Under the pieces are notes generated by a model, which saw only the letters and a program-made list of their open reading frames with translations, was not told where the DNA came from and did no database searches. From Sediminispirochaeta sp. (GTDB taxonomy: Bacteria; Spirochaetota; Spirochaetia; B11-G9): a stretch of DNA of 64,000 nucleotides. A program made the position numbers and the translations under genes. The stretch spans positions 26,678 to 90,677 of the forward strand of contig JANTFL010000001.1 of assembly GCA_024763455.1 (NCBI GenBank), given 5' to 3'. Of the stretch, positions 3,027 to 48,593 are shown one piece after another; the stretch's first letter is position 1, and each line of letters opens with the position of its first letter.

Positions 3027-3935
3027 GTGAAGAAAGGTAACGGAAAACTACTACTTGTATATATTCTTCTTGGGGTAATCGCAGCTGCCCTCTTGCTGAC
3101 CCTTGTTATACTACCGCCGGGGGCAATACAGGGAACGGCAGAAAGGGAAACAGAAAAAAGAGAGATAGAGAACGCGGAAGTAAAACCTCCGGAGCATCTG
3201 CCTGAGAGTCAGCCCGGGAAAGAGATCGTTAAAAAACCGCCGGCAAAAGGGCATCTTATCTTTGTAATCGATGATGTCGGAAACAATCTTTTTCAGTTGA
3301 AACCCTTTCTTGATCTCCCTTTTAAAATAACTTTTGCTATTTTACCCGGGCTGCCCTATACTGAAGAAGCTGCTGCGATGATCCATAAGGCAGGGAAGGA
3401 ATATATTCTTCACCAGCCTATGGATGCTGTCAATGGAGGTGATACAGGACCCGGAGCCATTCATACAGGGATGTCATTAGACGAGGTAAGGCATAGTGTT
3501 ACCGTAAATCTTGCACCCCTCCCTTATGCTCAGGGAATTAACAATCACATGGGTTCGGCCGGGACGGCAGACAAGGATTTAATGGTTTCGTTGTTTACAG
3601 TTTTAAAGGAAAAGGGTATGTTCTTTCTTGACAGCCGAACAACATCAAATAGTGTCGGGGCAGAGGTTGCCGCCCAGATAGGGCTTCCGTTTGCTGAAAG
3701 GAGTGTTTTTCTGGACAACAATAAAGAGAAAAAAGCGATAGAAGAATCCATTGAGAAGGGTGTTGATATTTCTGAAAAGAAAGGACATGCGGTTATGATA
3801 GGTCATATCTGGTCTGCAGAACTTGCAGAGGTTCTTCTTGAAATGTATCCAGCACTACTGGAGGATAATTACACTTTGAATAATCTTACTGAGCTTTTTA
3901 TGGGATATAAGGACGATGAAGATACTTGGTATTGA
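3027..3935 (+). CDS. divergent polysaccharide deacetylase family protein (YibQ-like), N-terminal membrane anchor
   Basis: 302 aa with a GTG start. It has an N-terminal TM helix followed by LIFVIDDVGNN..FAILPGLPYTEEAA..HQPMD..NNHMGS, the pattern of the YibQ/DUF610 family. Confidence 0.7.
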   Translation: MKKGNGKLLLVYILLGVIAAALLLTLVILPPGAIQGTAERETEKREIENAEVKPPEHLPESQPGKEIVKKPPAKGHLIFVIDDVGNNLFQLKPFLDLPFKITFAILPGLPYTEEAAAMIHKAGKEYILHQPMDAVNGGDTGPGAIHTGMSLDEVRHSVTVNLAPLPYAQGINNHMGSAGTADKDLMVSLFTVLKEKGMFFLDSRTTSNSVGAEVAAQIGLPFAERSVFLDNNKEKKAIEESIEKGVDISEKKGHAVMIGHIWSAELAEVLLEMYPALLEDNYTLNNLTELFMGYKDDEDTWY

Positions 3936-12540: not shown

Positions 12541-13740
12541 TTGAATAGAAGAAAACAAATAGATAAAGCCGTGATTTTCATTATACTGATTTTTCTCGTT
12601 CTTTTTATGACGTCAATGTTCGTTTACACACGTTTGAAGAAGGATAAGATAACTGGAGCGGTGGAAAACGGTGAGACCTTAAAAACCCTTATTATGATAA
12701 CAAATGGTAATACACTTCTGTATACCGAGCTCTTTATGTACAACTCAGCAACCCACAAGGGAGCGCTATTTGATATTCCCGGAAACGTTGGTTCAATAAT
12801 CAGTCAGACAGATAAAATGGACCGAATCGATACTCTTTTTGTTGGTAACAAACCAGAACCATATATAGAAAAAGTGGAGGAAATCCTTAATACTTCAATA
12901 CCGTACTATCTAATTATTGAAAGAGAGAATTTTAAGGGATTAGTTGACCTCTTTGAAGGGATAAAGCTGTTCATTCCCAATCCTGTTGAACTTGTTACAC
13001 AAGAGAATATTCTTTTACTTCCTTCCGGAAATGTAGTTCTTGACGGAGAAAAAGCGGTTACTTTCATGATGTATCAGGAAGAGGGAGAAGAAAACATAGA
13101 GAGTATAAGCAGAAGGCAGAAAGTCGTTCAATCGCTTTTAGGTACAATTGGAGAGAGAAATCAGCTGCTGGAAAACAGAAAACTTTCATCTGTTCTGTAT
13201 TCGCTTATTGATTCAAATCTCTCAAAAACAGCTGTTACAGCCCTGTTCTCAGAGATGAAGTTCCTGGATTCAGACAGAATGGTTTTTCAGAGGGTTCTGG
13301 GGGCAAAGCGAATAACCGGCGATAAAACACTTTTATTCCCTCACTATGAGGGTAAACTTCTGAAGGAGACCCTGTCACAGACAATTGACTCACTTGCCGA
13401 TCAAGAGGGACAAAGTAACAAGGCACTACAGATGAGTATTGACATACTGAATGGTACAGGACAGAACGGTCTTGCTGCGAGAACATCCGAGGTTTTCAAG
13501 AGTTTTGGTTTTGATATAATCAAGGTCGGTAACTATAGTGAAGATGACTTGGAAAAAACTTTGGTAGTGAGCAGAAGCCTTGACACGAGTGCAGCTGAGA
13601 AAGCTGCTGAGTTAATAAAGTGCAAAAATATAAAGTTTTCTACTGCTGTAGAGATACCAACTGAAAGTGTATCAGGTGACAGTGCAGATGTCATTGTGAT
13701 TCTGGGGAAGGATTTTGATGGAAGATATTGCAAAGATTAA
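12541..13740 (+). CDS. LCP (LytR-CpsA-Psr) family protein with LytR_C-like C-terminal domain
   Basis: 399 aa with a TTG start and an N-terminal TM helix. A diverged LCP core (DRIDTLF..IPYYLIIERENFKGLVDLFEGI) is followed by a C-terminal ILNGTGQNGLAART..DVIVILGKDF module. Confidence 0.65.
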   Translation: MNRRKQIDKAVIFIILIFLVLFMTSMFVYTRLKKDKITGAVENGETLKTLIMITNGNTLLYTELFMYNSATHKGALFDIPGNVGSIISQTDKMDRIDTLFVGNKPEPYIEKVEEILNTSIPYYLIIERENFKGLVDLFEGIKLFIPNPVELVTQENILLLPSGNVVLDGEKAVTFMMYQEEGEENIESISRRQKVVQSLLGTIGERNQLLENRKLSSVLYSLIDSNLSKTAVTALFSEMKFLDSDRMVFQRVLGAKRITGDKTLLFPHYEGKLLKETLSQTIDSLADQEGQSNKALQMSIDILNGTGQNGLAARTSEVFKSFGFDIIKVGNYSEDDLEKTLVVSRSLDTSAAEKAAELIKCKNIKFSTAVEIPTESVSGDSADVIVILGKDFDGRYCKD

Positions 13741-14095
13741 GAATGAAAATGAAATAGCTGTAGAGATAGGTAAATTTATCGATGAGCACAAAGGGACCGG
13801 AACAGTCGTTCTGGATATTTCTGAATTCAGCAGCTGGACAAAATACTTCATTATCTCAACTATTTCGAGTATGGGACACCTGAAGGGTATTGTGAAACAG
13901 CTGAAACTATACCTTCTCGAAAGAAATATCGACATATATCATCGACATAAAAATATAGCAGAAGATGGGTGGGAACTTGTCGACTGCGGAGATTATGTTA
14001 TCCATCTTATGAGTAGTGAAGTAAGAAAATTTTACAATCTGGAGAAGCTCTGGTTTAACGGGGAGATTCTGTATCAGTCATCAAAATCCTCATAA
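13715..14095 (+). CDS. rsfS: ribosome silencing factor RsfS (iojap-like)
   Basis: 126 aa. TKYFIISTISSMGHLKGIV..WELVDCGDYVIHLMSSEVRKFYNLEKLW is the RsfS signature. Confidence 0.85.
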   Translation: MMEDIAKIKNENEIAVEIGKFIDEHKGTGTVVLDISEFSSWTKYFIISTISSMGHLKGIVKQLKLYLLERNIDIYHRHKNIAEDGWELVDCGDYVIHLMSSEVRKFYNLEKLWFNGEILYQSSKSS

Positions 14096-14298
14096 TCAAG
14101 ACCATCGTAGTAGTCTATTTCATCATCATCGTCATCAATAAAATCTTCATCCTCTTCAGGAACCGCTTCATCGTTCTCTAAACTCTCATCGTCAAAGGGA
14201 TCTTCGGCGAAACTGTCGTCAAATTCTGAGAAGTTATCATCATAGTCAGTTTCGTAATCATCAAAACTGTCATCGTAAAAATCATCTTCGTCAATCAT
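14074..14298 (-). CDS. hyper-acidic aromatic-rich microprotein (74 aa), function unknown
   Basis: MIDEDDFYDDSFDDYETDYDDNF...YEDFDD. By hand count it has 41 of 74 residues D/E, 14 F/Y and no K/R/H. It has its own near-consensus promoter ending 6 nt upstream of the ATG at 14298. The track start at 14334 is a TTG inside that promoter's -35 hexamer. Confidence 0.5.
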   Translation of the reverse strand: MIDEDDFYDDSFDDYETDYDDNFSEFDDSFAEDPFDDESLENDEAVPEEDEDFIDDDDDEIDYYDGLDYEDFDD

Positions 14299-14304
14299 TA
14301 CCAC

Positions 14305-14334
14305 ATTGTATGGTAATGAATAAATTATTGTCAA
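14305..14334 (-). promoter_or_regulatory. sigma70-type promoter (leaderless geometry) of the acidic microprotein gene
   Basis: On the minus strand: TTGACA (14334-14329), an 18 nt spacer and TACAAT (14310-14305), then gtggta (6 nt) and the ATG. No SD is present. Confidence 0.5.
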
Positions 14335-14351
14335 TAAACAACAGGGATAAA

Positions 14352-14816
14352 TTACTTGATTCCTACATATAGTGTAAATAAACCGTAACTTCCGGTAAGT
14401 GACTTGTGCAGTATATACCTGGTGTCAGCAGGTTCGGAAAAAATATTTTTCCCAATAATAAGAGTAGGTGGAGTTATGTCGCAGCAATAGCCTTTTTTTT
14501 CCAGGAGCATCATACTTCTGCCGGAAATTTGGTTGAGGAGCTCACCCATAGCCTCTTTATGAAACCGGCCGAAGCCCTTTTCCCCTTCCGGATTCATTCC
14601 GAGATTAGCCAGCATCTTCTTTATAAAATTGGAGGCACTGGAGATGTCTGATTTAAGACTAAGAAACCCCTTTAGATCGCCGGTAATTCCGATGTTAGCG
14701 ACGACTTCTGTGCTATTACATGTATTTATGGTATCAGTAGGAGTAATTTCAAAGCCTGCTTGCTCAAACACAATTTTGGTTGCTTCGGTGAATAGTTCAA
14801 GATCCTCAATTCTCAT
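14352..14816 (-). CDS. cheX: chemotaxis phosphatase CheX
   Basis: 154 aa. MRIEDLELFTEATKIVFEQ.. and GITGDLKGFLSL fit the CheX/CheC family, and the N-terminus resembles spirochaetal CheX. Confidence 0.85.
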   Translation of the reverse strand: MRIEDLELFTEATKIVFEQAGFEITPTDTINTCNSTEVVANIGITGDLKGFLSLKSDISSASNFIKKMLANLGMNPEGEKGFGRFHKEAMGELLNQISGRSMMLLEKKGYCCDITPPTLIIGKNIFSEPADTRYILHKSLTGSYGLFTLYVGIK

Positions 14817-14824
14817 AGGTGGTA

Positions 14825-14853
14825 AGTATAGGAAAAAGCAATTATGTTGTCAA
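14825..14853 (-). promoter_or_regulatory. sigma70 promoter (leaderless geometry) of cheX
   Basis: On the minus strand: TTGACA (14853-14848), a 17 nt spacer and TATACT (14830-14825), then 8 nt (taccacct) to the ATG at 14816. No SD is present. Confidence 0.5.
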
Positions 14854-14875
14854 ACCGGAGCAAATCTCCTATGAT
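14847..14875 (+). promoter_or_regulatory. sigma70 promoter (leaderless geometry) of ispE
   Basis: TTGTCA (14847-14852), a 17 nt spacer and TATGAT (14870-14875), then 6 nt to the ATG at 14882. Its -35 overlaps the cheX -35 on the opposite strand. Confidence 0.5.
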
Positions 14876-14881
14876 ACAGTG

Positions 14882-15763
14882 ATGGCAACAATTACACTTA
14901 CTGCTCAGGCTAAGATTAATCTGCATTTGGAAATAACCGGATTAAGGGATGACGGTTTCCATACGATAAACTCCATCTTTCAATTGGTTTCTCTCGCAGA
15001 CCTGATAAAAATATCAACGAAAAAAGATACCGGGTTCTATTCTCTTAAAGGTAACTTTAATTTTCCCCGGGAGCATAATCTTATTACCAAAGCTTTAAAA
15101 CTGTTTAGAGAGGTTACCGGTCTCCATGACGGGGTTGAGATCGAGTGTATAAAGAAAATCCCCGCTGGTGCAGGGCTTGGAGGAGGTTCAAGCGACGCTG
15201 CATCAGTTTTAAAAGGTTTGAACCTGCTTTTTAATGCCGGCCTTTCAAGTAAAGAGATGGCTGAGGCGGGGAGTACCCTCGGAAGTGATATCCCGTTTTT
15301 TTTTGGCACCGGAACAGCAGTTGTTATGGGTAGAGGTGAAGAAGTAAAGGGAATCGAAACGTTGTGGGATCTTCCTGTTGTGATTATTGACACCGGTATT
15401 CATGTGTCAACGCAGGAAGCATACAGGAAATTTGACGAGTACAGTAATCATTCTCCTGCAAAGATTGGAGCGTTGGAGGATGAATACCGCAAAAAGCCCT
15501 CTTTATGGCCCTTCTATAATGATTTTTTTACCGTTCTCGATTTGGAAGATCCTGTTTACAGAAACTGCATTAACCGTTTAAAAAGCTTTGGAGCTTTATA
15601 TTCTGCTATTTCAGGAAGCGGATCTGCAGTTTTCGGGATCTTCTCCGATGGGAAGGGAGCTGCTGCGGCTGCCGGGGCTTTGGAAAAAGAATTTAAAGGG
15701 GTTCATAAAGGAAAAATGCTTGCGATTCCTCCTAAGGCGGTTTACAATTCAGACAATAACTAG
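14882..15763 (+). CDS. ispE: 4-(cytidine 5'-diphospho)-2-C-methyl-D-erythritol kinase
   Basis: AKINLHLEITGLRDDGFH and the GHMP motif IPAGAGLGGGSSDAA are present. I moved the start from the track GTG at 14819 (2 nt from the cheX start) to the ATG at 14882, which gives the usual ~10 aa before AKINL. Confidence 0.9.
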   Translation: MATITLTAQAKINLHLEITGLRDDGFHTINSIFQLVSLADLIKISTKKDTGFYSLKGNFNFPREHNLITKALKLFREVTGLHDGVEIECIKKIPAGAGLGGGSSDAASVLKGLNLLFNAGLSSKEMAEAGSTLGSDIPFFFGTGTAVVMGRGEEVKGIETLWDLPVVIIDTGIHVSTQEAYRKFDEYSNHSPAKIGALEDEYRKKPSLWPFYNDFFTVLDLEDPVYRNCINRLKSFGALYSAISGSGSAVFGIFSDGKGAAAAAGALEKEFKGVHKGKMLAIPPKAVYNSDNN

Positions 15764-46190: not shown

Positions 46191-48395
46191 CTAATGAAGC
46201 CCCAACTCATCAAAAAGTTTTTTATAAACTGAAAAGTACTCGGAGTTTGCAAACTCTTCTATCTTCTCCTCTGGGAGGGACTCGAGCAGCTGATCCATAT
46301 ACGATAGAACTGAAATAACCTCAGATTGCAGATGAGATGGAATCGGTTCTTCTCCAGGAGCATTGTCTGCTATTTCAGTATCCTCTGTTATTTCTTCAGG
46401 AATTTCGATTTCCTCAGGTGCCTCAACAGAATCAGACAATAAATCATCATCCTGGAGTTCCGGTATCTCGATATCAATAGCAGTACTTTCCATAGGTTCA
46501 GAAGGTTCTTTAGGGGGAAGAATATCAAATTCCTCATCAAGATCATTAAGCTCCGGCAGGTCTTCTACAAACTGTTCTTCACTTACTTCTGGAACTTCTT
46601 CAACACGTGCTGCCTCTTCCGGAATCTCAAGATCGGTAAGGTCGGAATCCAGAGAAAGTTCTTCTTCCTCCGGCATCTCCAGGTCGGTAAGGTCAGAATC
46701 CAGAGAAAGTTCTTCTTCCTCCGGCATCTCCAGGTCGGTAAGGTCGGAATCGAGAGAAAGTTCTTCTTCTGGGATCTCAAGATCAGTAAGGTCGGAATCA
46801 AGAGAAAGTTCTTCTTCCGGGATTTCAAGATTCGGCAGATCTGAATCCAGGGATAACTCAGCCGGTTCTTCCTCTTCCTCGATATCAATAAGTTCCGGAG
46901 TTTCGTCGGCTGCCTCATCAAGTACTTCCAGATCGATCAGATCTTCATCTTCAGCGTCCAAATTTAGTTCCGAAACGTCATCAAGCTCAAGGTTTTCGAG
47001 TTCCAGGTCAGGTTCGTCTGTAAAATCTACATCTTCGGAAACTACAGCTTCCGGTATCTCCTCTGCTTCATCGAGTTCGAGTTCTTCAACTTCCGGAATT
47101 TCTTCTTCCATGGAAAGTTCATCCAGTATATCTGGCTGATCAATTAAATCCAGATCTTCTGCTTTGGTTAGTTCCTCGTCCATGGAAAGTTCTTCAGAAT
47201 CTTCAAGAGATTCAGTTTCTACAGCCAGTTCCTCTGTTATATCAGCCGTATTAAGGATATTATCGAGTTCATCCCCTGTTAGAGCAATAGTTTCGTCATC
47301 ATCCTCATTAAAGAAATCACTCGTCTCCTCAGCTGTTTCATCCGTTTGAGAAGCGGTAACCGGAACTGTTTCAGTTGTTTTTAGAGTAGATAACTCCTCT
47401 TTCATTGTAAGAATTTCATTCTTTATGGTAAGGAGTTCGTTTTCAATCTTTTTTAATACTTCAGAAGCCGATTCAACGGATACTTCAGATGCCGTATAAG
47501 AGGGGATGTCACTTTCAACGATATCCTCCTCCTCACCAGTTGTAAGATCTTCAATGATACTTTCAGTTTCATCGAAGTCAACAGAGAAGTCATCAGGGGC
47601 TCCATCACCGGCTTCTTCATCTTCGGAGATTTCAAGGTCAGGGAGTTCTTCAATAGCAAGTTCTTCAGCTCCAGAGATCTCTTCGGCGTTGCCGGGAAGA
47701 GCAGCCTCTTCTTCTCCTTCTTCGTTAAGGAGGATATCATCATCTTCAAGAAAGCTGTCAACATCAAGGTCTTCAAAATCTTCATCGAGGCCGGAACTGA
47801 GTAGATCATCTTCATCAAGATCAAGATCAAGATCATCAACTGAATCTGTCTCAGGGTTAACGGAACTTATACTCTCAGTTTCACGTTCCGGTTCTGTGAC
47901 AGCCTCGATATCTTCTATATCCTCAAGCTCAAGGTCTTCCAGTTCACTGTCCAGGTCATCAAGATCAGCCAATTCTACATCTTCAAGTTCCAGATCATCC
48001 TCTTCCATAGTCTCCATTTCCGGTTCATCTCCTATGCCAGCAGTTTCAGTCTCTTTGGTATTTTCAGGAGACTCATCAAAAGTCTCTGAAGATTCTATAT
48101 CAAGAGGCATGTCAAAAGATTCGTCTTCTTCAAGATCGAAGTCAAGATCATCCAGTTCGTCAATCTCGTCATCGATTTCTTCTGTAACAAGTTCCTTTTC
48201 AAGTTCTCCCAGAAGATTTTCTTCTTCCTCTGTAATTGCACTCTCAGTAGTATCCTGAATATCATGAAGAGAGAAATCTTCTCCTGTATTTAAAGTGTCT
48301 TCGGTTTCAATCTCTTCCGGACCTGCTTTTACCCATACTCCGTACTGTTCAAGCTCTTTTTCTTTTTTTATGTCATCATTCCCGTTTGACACCAT
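46191..48395 (-). CDS. hyper-acidic repeat protein (~734 aa), function unknown
   Basis: Long ORF. 39 of the first 100 residues are D/E by hand count and the composition is similar throughout. There is no TM helix or signal peptide. Three non-acidic islands are present: N-terminal KELEQYGVWVKAGPEE, a central coiled-coil-like VLKKIENELLTIKNEILTMKEELSTLK, and C-terminal VISVLSYMDQLLESLPEEKIEEFANSEYFSVYKKLFDELGL. AGGAG lies 6 nt upstream of the second ATG (48395); the first ATG at 48401 abuts the SD. Confidence 0.6.
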   Translation of the reverse strand: MVSNGNDDIKKEKELEQYGVWVKAGPEEIETEDTLNTGEDFSLHDIQDTTESAITEEEENLLGELEKELVTEEIDDEIDELDDLDFDLEEDESFDMPLDIESSETFDESPENTKETETAGIGDEPEMETMEEDDLELEDVELADLDDLDSELEDLELEDIEDIEAVTEPERETESISSVNPETDSVDDLDLDLDEDDLLSSGLDEDFEDLDVDSFLEDDDILLNEEGEEEAALPGNAEEISGAEELAIEELPDLEISEDEEAGDGAPDDFSVDFDETESIIEDLTTGEEEDIVESDIPSYTASEVSVESASEVLKKIENELLTIKNEILTMKEELSTLKTTETVPVTASQTDETAEETSDFFNEDDDETIALTGDELDNILNTADITEELAVETESLEDSEELSMDEELTKAEDLDLIDQPDILDELSMEEEIPEVEELELDEAEEIPEAVVSEDVDFTDEPDLELENLELDDVSELNLDAEDEDLIDLEVLDEAADETPELIDIEEEEEPAELSLDSDLPNLEIPEEELSLDSDLTDLEIPEEELSLDSDLTDLEMPEEEELSLDSDLTDLEMPEEEELSLDSDLTDLEIPEEAARVEEVPEVSEEQFVEDLPELNDLDEEFDILPPKEPSEPMESTAIDIEIPELQDDDLLSDSVEAPEEIEIPEEITEDTEIADNAPGEEPIPSHLQSEVISVLSYMDQLLESLPEEKIEEFANSEYFSVYKKLFDELGLH
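46614..46862 (-). repeat. in-frame tandem repeat, 5 units of 48 or 51 nt (ELSLDSDLTDLE[I/M]PEE[E])
   Basis: Five consecutive near-identical DNA units are visible, e.g. ccggcatctccaggtcggtaaggtc[a/g]gaatccagagaaagttcttcttcct occurs twice. They encode 17+16+17+17+16 aa. Confidence 0.9.
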
Positions 48396-48593
48396 TTCCA
48401 TCTCCTGATATTTAGTTCACTTTTACAAATATCGGCAAATAAATTTAAAGTATGACTTATTTATCAGTTTCAATACTATTAATTACAAGTTATCAGAATT
48501 ATAGAGAAATAACAATCAAAATCTAAAAAATATTGAGCCCTTTTCTCTTTCCCGGCTCAAGATTAAGACCTGAATTTCCGTAAAAAAGAACAT

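Follow-up and report, generated by a model that had tools for sequence, protein, structure and literature searches.

A gene for a 74-residue, extremely acidic protein was found in a 64,000-nt stretch of Sediminispirochaeta sp. DNA (contig JANTFL010000001.1, positions 26,678 to 90,677 of the forward strand; hereafter the window), where it is convergent to rsfS, the gene for ribosome silencing factor. Substitutions among related spirochaete contigs follow the codon-position pattern, which firmly established the acidic gene as a genuine protein-coding gene under strong purifying selection. Alignment of the predicted products firmly established that they are modular, with an acidic-aromatic module at each end and, between them, a poly-D/E spacer that evolves fast and varies in length. 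The sequence pattern would suit a disordered polyanion that binds a conserved partner by docking both modules on its basic or hydrophobic surface and uses the spacer as an acidic tether; this reading was given a probability of about one in two. Coordinates of the gene and of the parts of its product were as follows.

14074..14298, minus strand: coding sequence of the acidic protein (ATG 14298-14296, TGA 14076-14074; 74 codons)
14185..14298, minus strand: N-terminal acidic-aromatic module, residues 1-38 (M-x-D-E-D-DFYDD[SN]FDDYE-x-[DE][YF][DE]D-x-[FY]SE...)
14125..14184, minus strand: variable poly-acidic spacer, residues 39-58 (low identity, insertions and deletions)
14077..14124, minus strand: C-terminal module, residues 59-74 (D[DE][ILV]DY[YD]DGLDY[ED]DFD[DE]-COOH)

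The product contains 29 Asp and 12 Glu (41 acidic residues, 55%), 8 Phe and 6 Tyr (14 aromatic residues) and no Lys, Arg or His. The initial annotation, made from the letters of the window, had described the open reading frame (ORF) in these terms, and its description was exact on all counts, with an identical translation. We infer an intrinsically disordered polyanion (about 8.9 kDa; net charge close to -41). It was by far the most acidic product among the 119 window ORFs of at least 70 aa, and if made it would rank with the most acidic of the conserved proteins of bacteria (a general impression that rests on no survey). The mechanically called ORF of 86 aa (14334..14074) begins at the TTG of the -35 hexamer described below, which is not the conserved start. 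No paralogue was found in the 64-kb window. Codon usage equalled the genome average and was uninformative as a proxy for expression.

Evidence for a protein-coding gene

Relatives were located by synteny, as direct protein searches failed: the contigs that carry CheX orthologues (92% down to 58% identity) were identified, and individual loci are referred to below by L numbers. An ORF of 74-80 aa was called between cheX and rsfS in every CheX-syntenic contig, and the acidic products aligned at 97-68% identity, against 92-58% for CheX. The ratio of nonsynonymous to synonymous substitution rates (dN/dS; Nei-Gojobori) of the acidic gene was 0.075 (L001), 0.024 (L002) and ~0.12 (L008, L009), an overall range of 0.02-0.12, with synonymous sites saturated in the remaining pairs. 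Its dN was consistently lower than the cheX value and similar to the value for rsfS. Across ten sequences, variable columns at codon positions 1, 2 and 3 numbered 20, 22 and 66 of 74. Indels in the spacer keep the frame, so that all orthologues are open from the conserved ATG to the conserved C-terminal module. The ORF, its start, the promoter and the 22-nt overlap were found again in each syntenic relative examined, and their combination is more than chance.

The reading that there is no protein gene here, and that the region is only a 3' antisense RNA to rsfS or a chance ORF in low-complexity GAT-rich DNA, draws on two facts: GAT/GAC-rich DNA leaves several frames open (e.g. an MMMM frame in L010), and a transcript of the acidic gene necessarily overlaps the rsfS mRNA. 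It is opposed by the dN/dS values, by the excess of variable third positions over first and second positions, by the in-frame spacer indels, by the conserved ATG and by the Shine-Dalgarno sequences present in relatives. In addition, the region had no Rfam match, its DNA had no tandem repeat according to TRF, and RNA folds of both strands downstream of both stop codons gave no terminator and no significant structure. Given the substitution pattern, a purely non-coding or accidental origin is effectively excluded. The initial annotation had argued that the ORF is real rather than accidental and has a promoter of its own, which was borne out by the conservation of promoter and ORF together with the dN/dS of 0.02-0.12. 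It had also named loss of the ORF in relatives that keep the promoter as an observation that would speak against the gene; the ORF was retained everywhere.

Anatomy of the predicted protein

Mean pairwise identity across 19 sequences was 0.68 in the N-terminal module, 0.42 in the spacer and 0.83 in the C-terminal module. Invariant residues were D6, F7, Y8, D9, D10, F12, D13, D14, E16, D21 and D33 in the N-terminal module and Y63, D65, G66, L67, D68, Y69, D71, F72 and D73 in the C-terminal module. Columns occupied by Asp only numbered seven in the N-terminal module, four in the C-terminal module and none in the spacer, where every acidic column exchanged Asp and Glu freely. Because of this free exchange, the spacer would need only generic negative charge; in the end modules the constraint falls on individual residues, as would be expected at binding interfaces. 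Residues 59-67 of the C-terminal module lie outside the rsfS overlap and were as conserved as the rest of it. The C-terminus is F-D-D or F-D-E in each of the 19 aligned members.

The aromatic residues at positions 5-37 recur with a period of ~3.8 residues, and the observed moment was reached in 2 of 5000 shuffles. This period would suit an amphipathic helix that forms when the protein binds, or else a repeat of the D-D-x-aromatic type. Single-sequence AlphaFold2 modelling returned no secondary structure (predicted local distance difference test 58, predicted template modelling score 0.13), which is consistent with a disordered product, a single-sequence model being weak evidence of disorder.

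Extent of the family

An orthologue convergent to rsfS was found in ~30 related spirochaete contigs. Members were of several types: window-like; the L011/L021/L037 type; a second large group (MDEEDFYDDNFDDYENEFEDKYSEVEDDLLDDEY...DLDYDDGLDYDDFDD; group 2); a longer type (L014/L028); and a truncated member (L027). A Sediminispirochaetaceae metagenome-assembled genome (MAG; L045/L046) encoded a 77-aa product (MVNREDSYSDDDFFQDSFDDYDSDLDNSF...LDYDDGLDFDDFDD), and gene calling on Logan contig L044 gave an acidic product identical to that of the window. Two GTDB species representatives, both 'Spirochaetaceae bacterium' MAGs, matched a degenerate DNA pattern for the C-terminal motif; the pattern was the group-1-specific DYYDGLDY, and its two matches are a lower bound for one subfamily. 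As far as sampled, the family appears confined to uncultured Spirochaetaceae/Sediminispirochaetaceae-like spirochaetes.

A pattern for the N-terminal motif was found at 32 metagenome loci, 16 of them family members. The other 16 were rejected as unrelated proteins with similar acidic stretches (acidic-tailed membrane proteins, an ABC ATPase and others). L012, L017, L020, L023, L026, L030, L032, L034, L035 and L041 encode unrelated single-pass membrane proteins of ~87-120 aa with a very similar acidic-aromatic tail (…YEDDFYDDDFDDFEDDFEDEDF…), which suggests that D-D-F/Y repeats recur elsewhere as a functional tail design. Neither motif pattern was found in viral contigs, and a viral origin of the acidic gene was rejected on that ground.

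Searches of Pfam, NCBIfam, PHROGs and PADLOC, and a search of the PDB with the family profile, gave no meaningful match; the family is unannotated and has no homologue in these curated libraries. Neither the acidic protein (in its 74-aa and 86-aa forms) nor CheX was retrieved by exact look-up. A word-index search and a full phmmer scan of 1.84 billion representatives likewise gave none, a result that was uninformative, the exact family sequences being absent from the collection. The 15-billion-sequence protein collection and its representatives contained no family member, even though gene callers had predicted the ORF on the source contigs. Because collections appear to drop low-complexity microproteins, negative homology searches for proteins of this kind are uninformative. 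Conserved low-complexity microproteins would then be systematically overlooked, being absent from large collections and rejected by composition filters.

Overlap with rsfS and gene neighbourhood

Features of the neighbourhood were as follows.

13718..14095, plus strand: rsfS, ribosome silencing factor (Pfam PF02410, E = 3.8e-23), convergent to the acidic gene
14074..14095, unstranded: 22-nt 3'-3' overlap of the acidic gene and rsfS (from ORF coordinates)
14352..14816, minus strand: cheX (Pfam PF13690), on the same strand as the acidic gene and 53 nt upstream of it

The 22-nt overlap had been reported in the initial annotation and was found again at 14074-14095. Its length was exactly 22 nt in 19 of 19 loci tested from group 1, group 2 and L011/L037; the genes overlap by 49 nt in L014/L028 and by 40 nt in L045/L046. 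The Pfam domain of RsfS stops at W113, and 13 further residues run into the acidic gene; the RsfS tail YQSSKSS of the window is the antisense reading of the ...DFDD* end of the acidic gene. Tails found elsewhere in the lineage (YQSSKSSKSSPSS, YQSPESSKSS and YHSSSSSSPPSSSSTE) are likewise antisense to the last codons of the acidic gene. RsfS of this lineage thereby carries a Ser/Lys-rich C-terminal extension of 13 to 27 residues past the Pfam domain (14057-14095 in the window), which varies with the 22-, 40- or 49-nt overlap. Among RsfS homologues of at least 57% identity, 55 of 58 had Ser/Lys-rich tails and the three most distant had none; the tailed homologues include ones named Sediminispirochaeta sp., Sediminispirochaetaceae and Spirochaetia bacterium. 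These tails suggest, indirectly, that the acidic gene may be widespread in that spirochaete lineage.

In the window, rsfS is the last gene of an obg-nadD-yqeK-lytR-rsfS run. Searches with the window neighbours (tblastn) gave a common backbone of obg-nadD-yqeK-lytR-rsfS, the acidic gene, (cheX) and ispE-spoVG-L25-pth-tilS, which was found in every member locus long enough to show neighbours. The acidic gene was convergent to rsfS wherever the contig included rsfS. cheX lies upstream in the window and throughout the group-1, group-2 and L011-type loci; L014/L028 and L045/L046 lack it and retain the acidic gene. Because these two lineages keep the acidic gene without cheX, cheX would be a later or dispensable neighbour, and rsfS is the constant one among the loci compared. 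The view of the initial annotation that the location gives no functional clue is countered by the rsfS overlap, which was kept in every locus where rsfS could be examined. The surrounding cluster is ribosome-related (L27, obg, rsfS, L25, pth). Nothing was found in the literature on a gene that overlaps rsfS.

Promoter and leader of the acidic gene

Promoter-like elements of the acidic gene were as follows.

14329..14334, minus strand: -35 hexamer TTGACA (consensus scan)
14305..14310, minus strand: -10 hexamer TACAAT, with an 18-nt spacer to the -35 hexamer and 6 nt to the ATG
14295..14319, unstranded: perfect 9-bp inverted repeat TCATTACCA / TGGTAATGA, centred on the -10 hexamer and including the ATG

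The scan thus returned the TTGACA-N18-TACAAT arrangement 6 nt before the ATG on which the initial annotation had relied, with 11 of 12 consensus matches. In an alignment of the eight closest relatives the -35 TTGACA was invariant and the -10 element, TACA(A/T)T, was also conserved. TTGACA and the -10 element were recognisable upstream in group 2, L011/L037, L014/L028 and L045 as well; a -35 element was not seen within the 75 nt examined upstream in L019 (group 2) and L042. This conservation shows a putative promoter of sigma-70 type that belongs to the acidic gene itself. The inverted repeat survives only in part in L001 and L002 and is missing from L006, and ~0.08 such repeats would be expected by chance (own estimate); it is possibly an operator and possibly a chance occurrence.

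Leaders differed among relatives. L004, L007, L008 and L009 carry an insert of 22-26 nt with a GGAG-type Shine-Dalgarno sequence between the -10 hexamer and the ATG, and group 2 and L014 likewise carry a GGAG/GAGG-type Shine-Dalgarno leader there. The window, L001, L002 and L006 are without the 22-26 nt leader, and their ATG follows the -10 hexamer by 6 nt. The same geometry as in the window was found independently in L045 (TTGACA-N18-TATACT-N6-ATG). Transcription from sigma-70 promoters normally starts ~7 nt after the -10 hexamer, usually at an A. Because only 6 nt separate the -10 hexamer from the ATG, the transcript would begin with AUG; from this geometry, the window clade is predicted to have lost its Shine-Dalgarno leader and to make a leaderless mRNA starting at the A of the ATG. 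From the 6-nt distance the initial annotation had drawn only a dedicated promoter. Leaderless mRNAs have been documented in Leptospira and Borrelia (PMC5243855, PMC5314773). The locus would be a clean example of a switch between Shine-Dalgarno-led and leaderless translation in which the same promoter is kept.

Translation of a hyper-acidic chain

In E. coli, three or more D/E/P among the six residues after Met lead to frequent abortive translation through intrinsic ribosome destabilisation (PMC11162784). This leaves peptidyl-tRNA sensitive to Pth and is worse at low Mg2+ or without bL31 (10.1101/2021.02.02.429294, PMC11162784), and PMC11282234 reports that the ABCF proteins EttA and YbiT relieve it. 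Destabilisation is counteracted by ~30 nascent residues in the tunnel or by bulky residues just before the acidic run (10.1101/2021.02.02.429294), and bacterial N-termini generally avoid destabilising acidic sequences (10.1101/2021.02.02.429294, PMC11162784).

The acidic protein starts with the kind of sequence that is avoided in this way, an expected difficulty for translation that the initial annotation had not raised. Residues 2-7 are I-D-E-D-D-F, with four D/E, within the range given in PMC11162784, and each 10-residue window of the first 30 residues holds 5-7 D/E. In all 20 members, D/E runs that start within the first 30 residues are short (3-5 residues), and nearly every such run of the window sequence follows an F or Y. 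Each member has its longest D/E run (4-17 residues) in the spacer, with a start at residue 38 or later (20/20 members); the pattern was not significant against shuffles for single sequences, and the 20 sequences share descent. Regularly spaced bulky aromatics and late-placed long runs are consistent with, and not proof of, an adaptation that lets the ribosome make so acidic a chain; they could otherwise belong to a sensor design. The gene may serve as a natural test case of how ribosomes of other phyla handle poly-acidic nascent chains, and of whether periodic bulky residues are an evolved countermeasure.

Proposed function and its likenesses

As proposed, a conserved cellular partner would receive the N- and C-terminal modules in basic or hydrophobic grooves, and the acidic spacer would form a flexible, nucleic-acid-like tether between the docked modules. 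The product might then act as a decoy, a competitor or a molecular clamp, in the manner of DSS1/Sem1 or of the acidic tail of the RNA polymerase delta subunit. Two residue-specific modules imply a conserved spirochaete partner, possibly in ribosome silencing or assembly. Because the sole persistent genomic association is with rsfS and the ribosome-related cluster, a ribosomal or ribosome-associated basic protein would be the first candidate. The suggestion that the acidic-aromatic motifs serve as docking tips for basic surfaces, made in the initial annotation, is plausible, and the modular conservation would fit it.

DSS1/Sem1 proteins have acidic patches with conserved aromatics, are disordered when free, clamp basic grooves through two linker-joined sites and can mimic DNA. 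Their size is similar (eukaryotic, 70-89 aa, PF05160), and a small, acidic, disordered design with two aromatic-bearing modules and a linker is found in the spirochaete protein as well. The resemblance is one of design only, the disorder of the spirochaete protein being taken from low-confidence AlphaFold2 modelling. DSS1 differs in being restricted to eukaryotes, in being less acidic, and in having basic residues and a C-terminal helix. None of 19 members matched PF05160 at E <= 1, and hhalign of the family alignment against human DSS1 (sequence entered by hand) gave a probability of 0.07%. PMC8442969 describes DSS1 as small, highly acidic and disordered.

The folded DNA mimics Ocr, ArdA, DMP12, DMP19, HI1450 and Ugi are also small and strongly negative and occupy the DNA-binding surfaces of basic proteins; DMP12 acts on HU (PMC3643605). 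They are folded, ~20-35% acidic and in many cases phage- or plasmid-borne, whereas the spirochaete protein is 55% acidic, predicted to be disordered, chromosomal and vertically inherited. Ocr (PF08684), ArdA (PF07275), DMP12/DMP19 and Ugi were not matched in Pfam, PHROGs or PADLOC, nor in the PDB at E <= 10 with the family profile.

The tail of the Firmicutes RNA polymerase delta subunit (RpoE) consists of ~80 disordered, D/E-dominated residues with interspersed hydrophobics and imitates nucleic acid at a basic channel. A folded N-terminal HARE-HTH domain (PF05066) anchors delta, whereas the spirochaete protein has no Pfam domain and is acidic from residue 3 onward; conservation in it lies at the two ends and not in an anchor domain. 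The C-terminal tip of SSB (D-D-D-I/L-P-F), the analogy drawn in the initial annotation, is also an acidic run with an aromatic or hydrophobic docking peptide. It requires a terminal hydrophobic residue with a free carboxylate, whereas the spirochaete proteins close with F-D-D or F-D-E and lack an OB-fold domain. Small disordered acidic-aromatic binding proteins thus have precedents, and what is new here is a bacterial, chromosomally fixed, rsfS-interlocked and N-terminally hyper-acidic gene.

Several points weigh against a docking polyanion of this kind. All family members come from MAGs or metagenomes. By E. coli rules the N-terminus should often abort translation, which makes the full-length yield uncertain. 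The neighbours are acidic to neutral (RsfS pI 5.7, CheX pI 5.7), and because both are mildly acidic, RsfS and CheX are unlikely to be simple electrostatic partners. Finally, the adjacency to rsfS may reflect vertical inheritance of an overlap-locked gene, without a functional link.

Alternative functions

Alternatives to the docking polyanion were ranked by credence in the order of a ribosome-destabilisation sensor, a cation buffer, an electrostatic chaperone, a CheX accessory and, last, the non-coding element dealt with above. As a sensor, the acidic N-terminus would make the ribosome fall apart stochastically, as in MgtL, and more so at low Mg2+, at low energy or with weakened 70S; completion of the ORF would decide whether antisense transcription proceeds into rsfS, by Rho-type polarity or RNA duplex formation, and would couple ribosome integrity to the RsfS level. 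In favour of this reading are the four D/E in residues 2-7 and the 5-7 D/E per 10-residue window of the first 30; a strong conserved promoter directed into rsfS; no predicted terminator after the stop codon; and, downstream, only rsfS-lytR in antisense, with no co-directional gene and with a conserved overlap. MgtL itself has an acidic-rich N-terminus right after Met, as the spirochaete protein has, and aborts translation in a Mg2+-sensitive manner in E. coli. It is a 17-aa leader upstream of its target on the same mRNA, as known sensors are short leaders upstream of the regulated gene on the same RNA, whereas the spirochaete ORF encodes 74 aa that are conserved through to the C-terminal residue, no gene follows it in the same direction, and its arrangement would lessen destabilisation. 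Selection moreover acts on the whole finished chain, including an invariant C-terminal module with residues outside the overlap, and Asp-only columns are unnecessary for destabilisation. The sequence appears to avoid abortion, with bulky F/Y before short acidic runs and long runs only after residue 38. A sensor role was judged unlikely. In an extended form, the nascent chain would probe 70S stability (Mg2+, energy, ABCF), completion would set antisense transcription over rsfS, and the finished polyanion might act on free 50S or uL14; such a ribosome-integrity sensor wired to rsfS is quite unlikely.

Equal doubt attaches to a cation buffer or chelator, in which an Asp-rich polyanion of the cytoplasm would bind Ca2+, Mg2+ or polyamines and have no specific protein partner. 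The 41 acidic residues among 74, with no basic residue, would suit such a role, and an excess of Asp over Glu is typical of calcium-binding and mineral-binding proteins. Bulk ion binding does not, however, need strict aromatic positions, the G66-L67 pair or a fixed identity of Asp as opposed to Glu. Nor is the EF-hand/DxDxDG arrangement (D-x-[DNS]-x-[DNS]-G-x-[ILV]-x-x-x-[ED]) present: with G66 at loop position 6, positions 1, 3, 8 and 12 are I/L, Y, D and F. No Pfam calcium-binding or EF-hand match was found.

The extreme charge, the predicted disorder, the strong and constitutive-looking promoter and the place within a ribosome-related cluster (L27, obg, rsfS, L25, pth) could also describe a generic electrostatic solubiliser that shields basic or aggregation-prone clients, e.g. 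ribosomal proteins, without a single partner. Residue-specific conservation of two modules indicates a defined interface instead, and the family is restricted to one spirochaete lineage. Such a chaperone is rather improbable, like the extended form of the sensor. A chemotaxis accessory that works with CheX, the phosphatase whose gene comes directly before it on the same strand, is highly improbable: cheX lies 53 nt upstream in the window and upstream in all group-1, group-2 and L011-type loci, but the acidic gene persists without cheX in L014/L028 and L045/L046 and has its own conserved promoter in the gap, and read-through transcripts in the window clade would give it no ribosome-binding site.

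Neighbouring promoter-like sites and a second acidic protein

A 736-aa ORF (46191-48401, minus strand) is 40% D/E, with internal repeats of EEELSLDSDLTDLE(I/M)PE, and represents a second, much larger acidic low-complexity protein in the window. Promoter-like sites next to the acidic gene were as follows.

14853..14825, minus strand: cheX promoter-like site TTGACA-N17-TATACT, with the ATG 8 nt later
14847..14875, plus strand: ispE promoter-like site TTGTCA-N17-TATGAT, with the ATG 6 nt later

The cheX geometry was conserved in nine relatives, with the ATG 5-8 nt after the -10 hexamer. cheX (14816..14352, minus strand) and ispE (14882..15763, plus strand) are back-to-back, with overlapping promoter-like sites in the divergent region 14825-14882. 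Three adjacent units (the acidic gene, cheX and ispE) look leaderless, and only four such arrangements were found in the 64-kb window; the fourth precedes a GTG ORF at 3027..3935 (plus strand).

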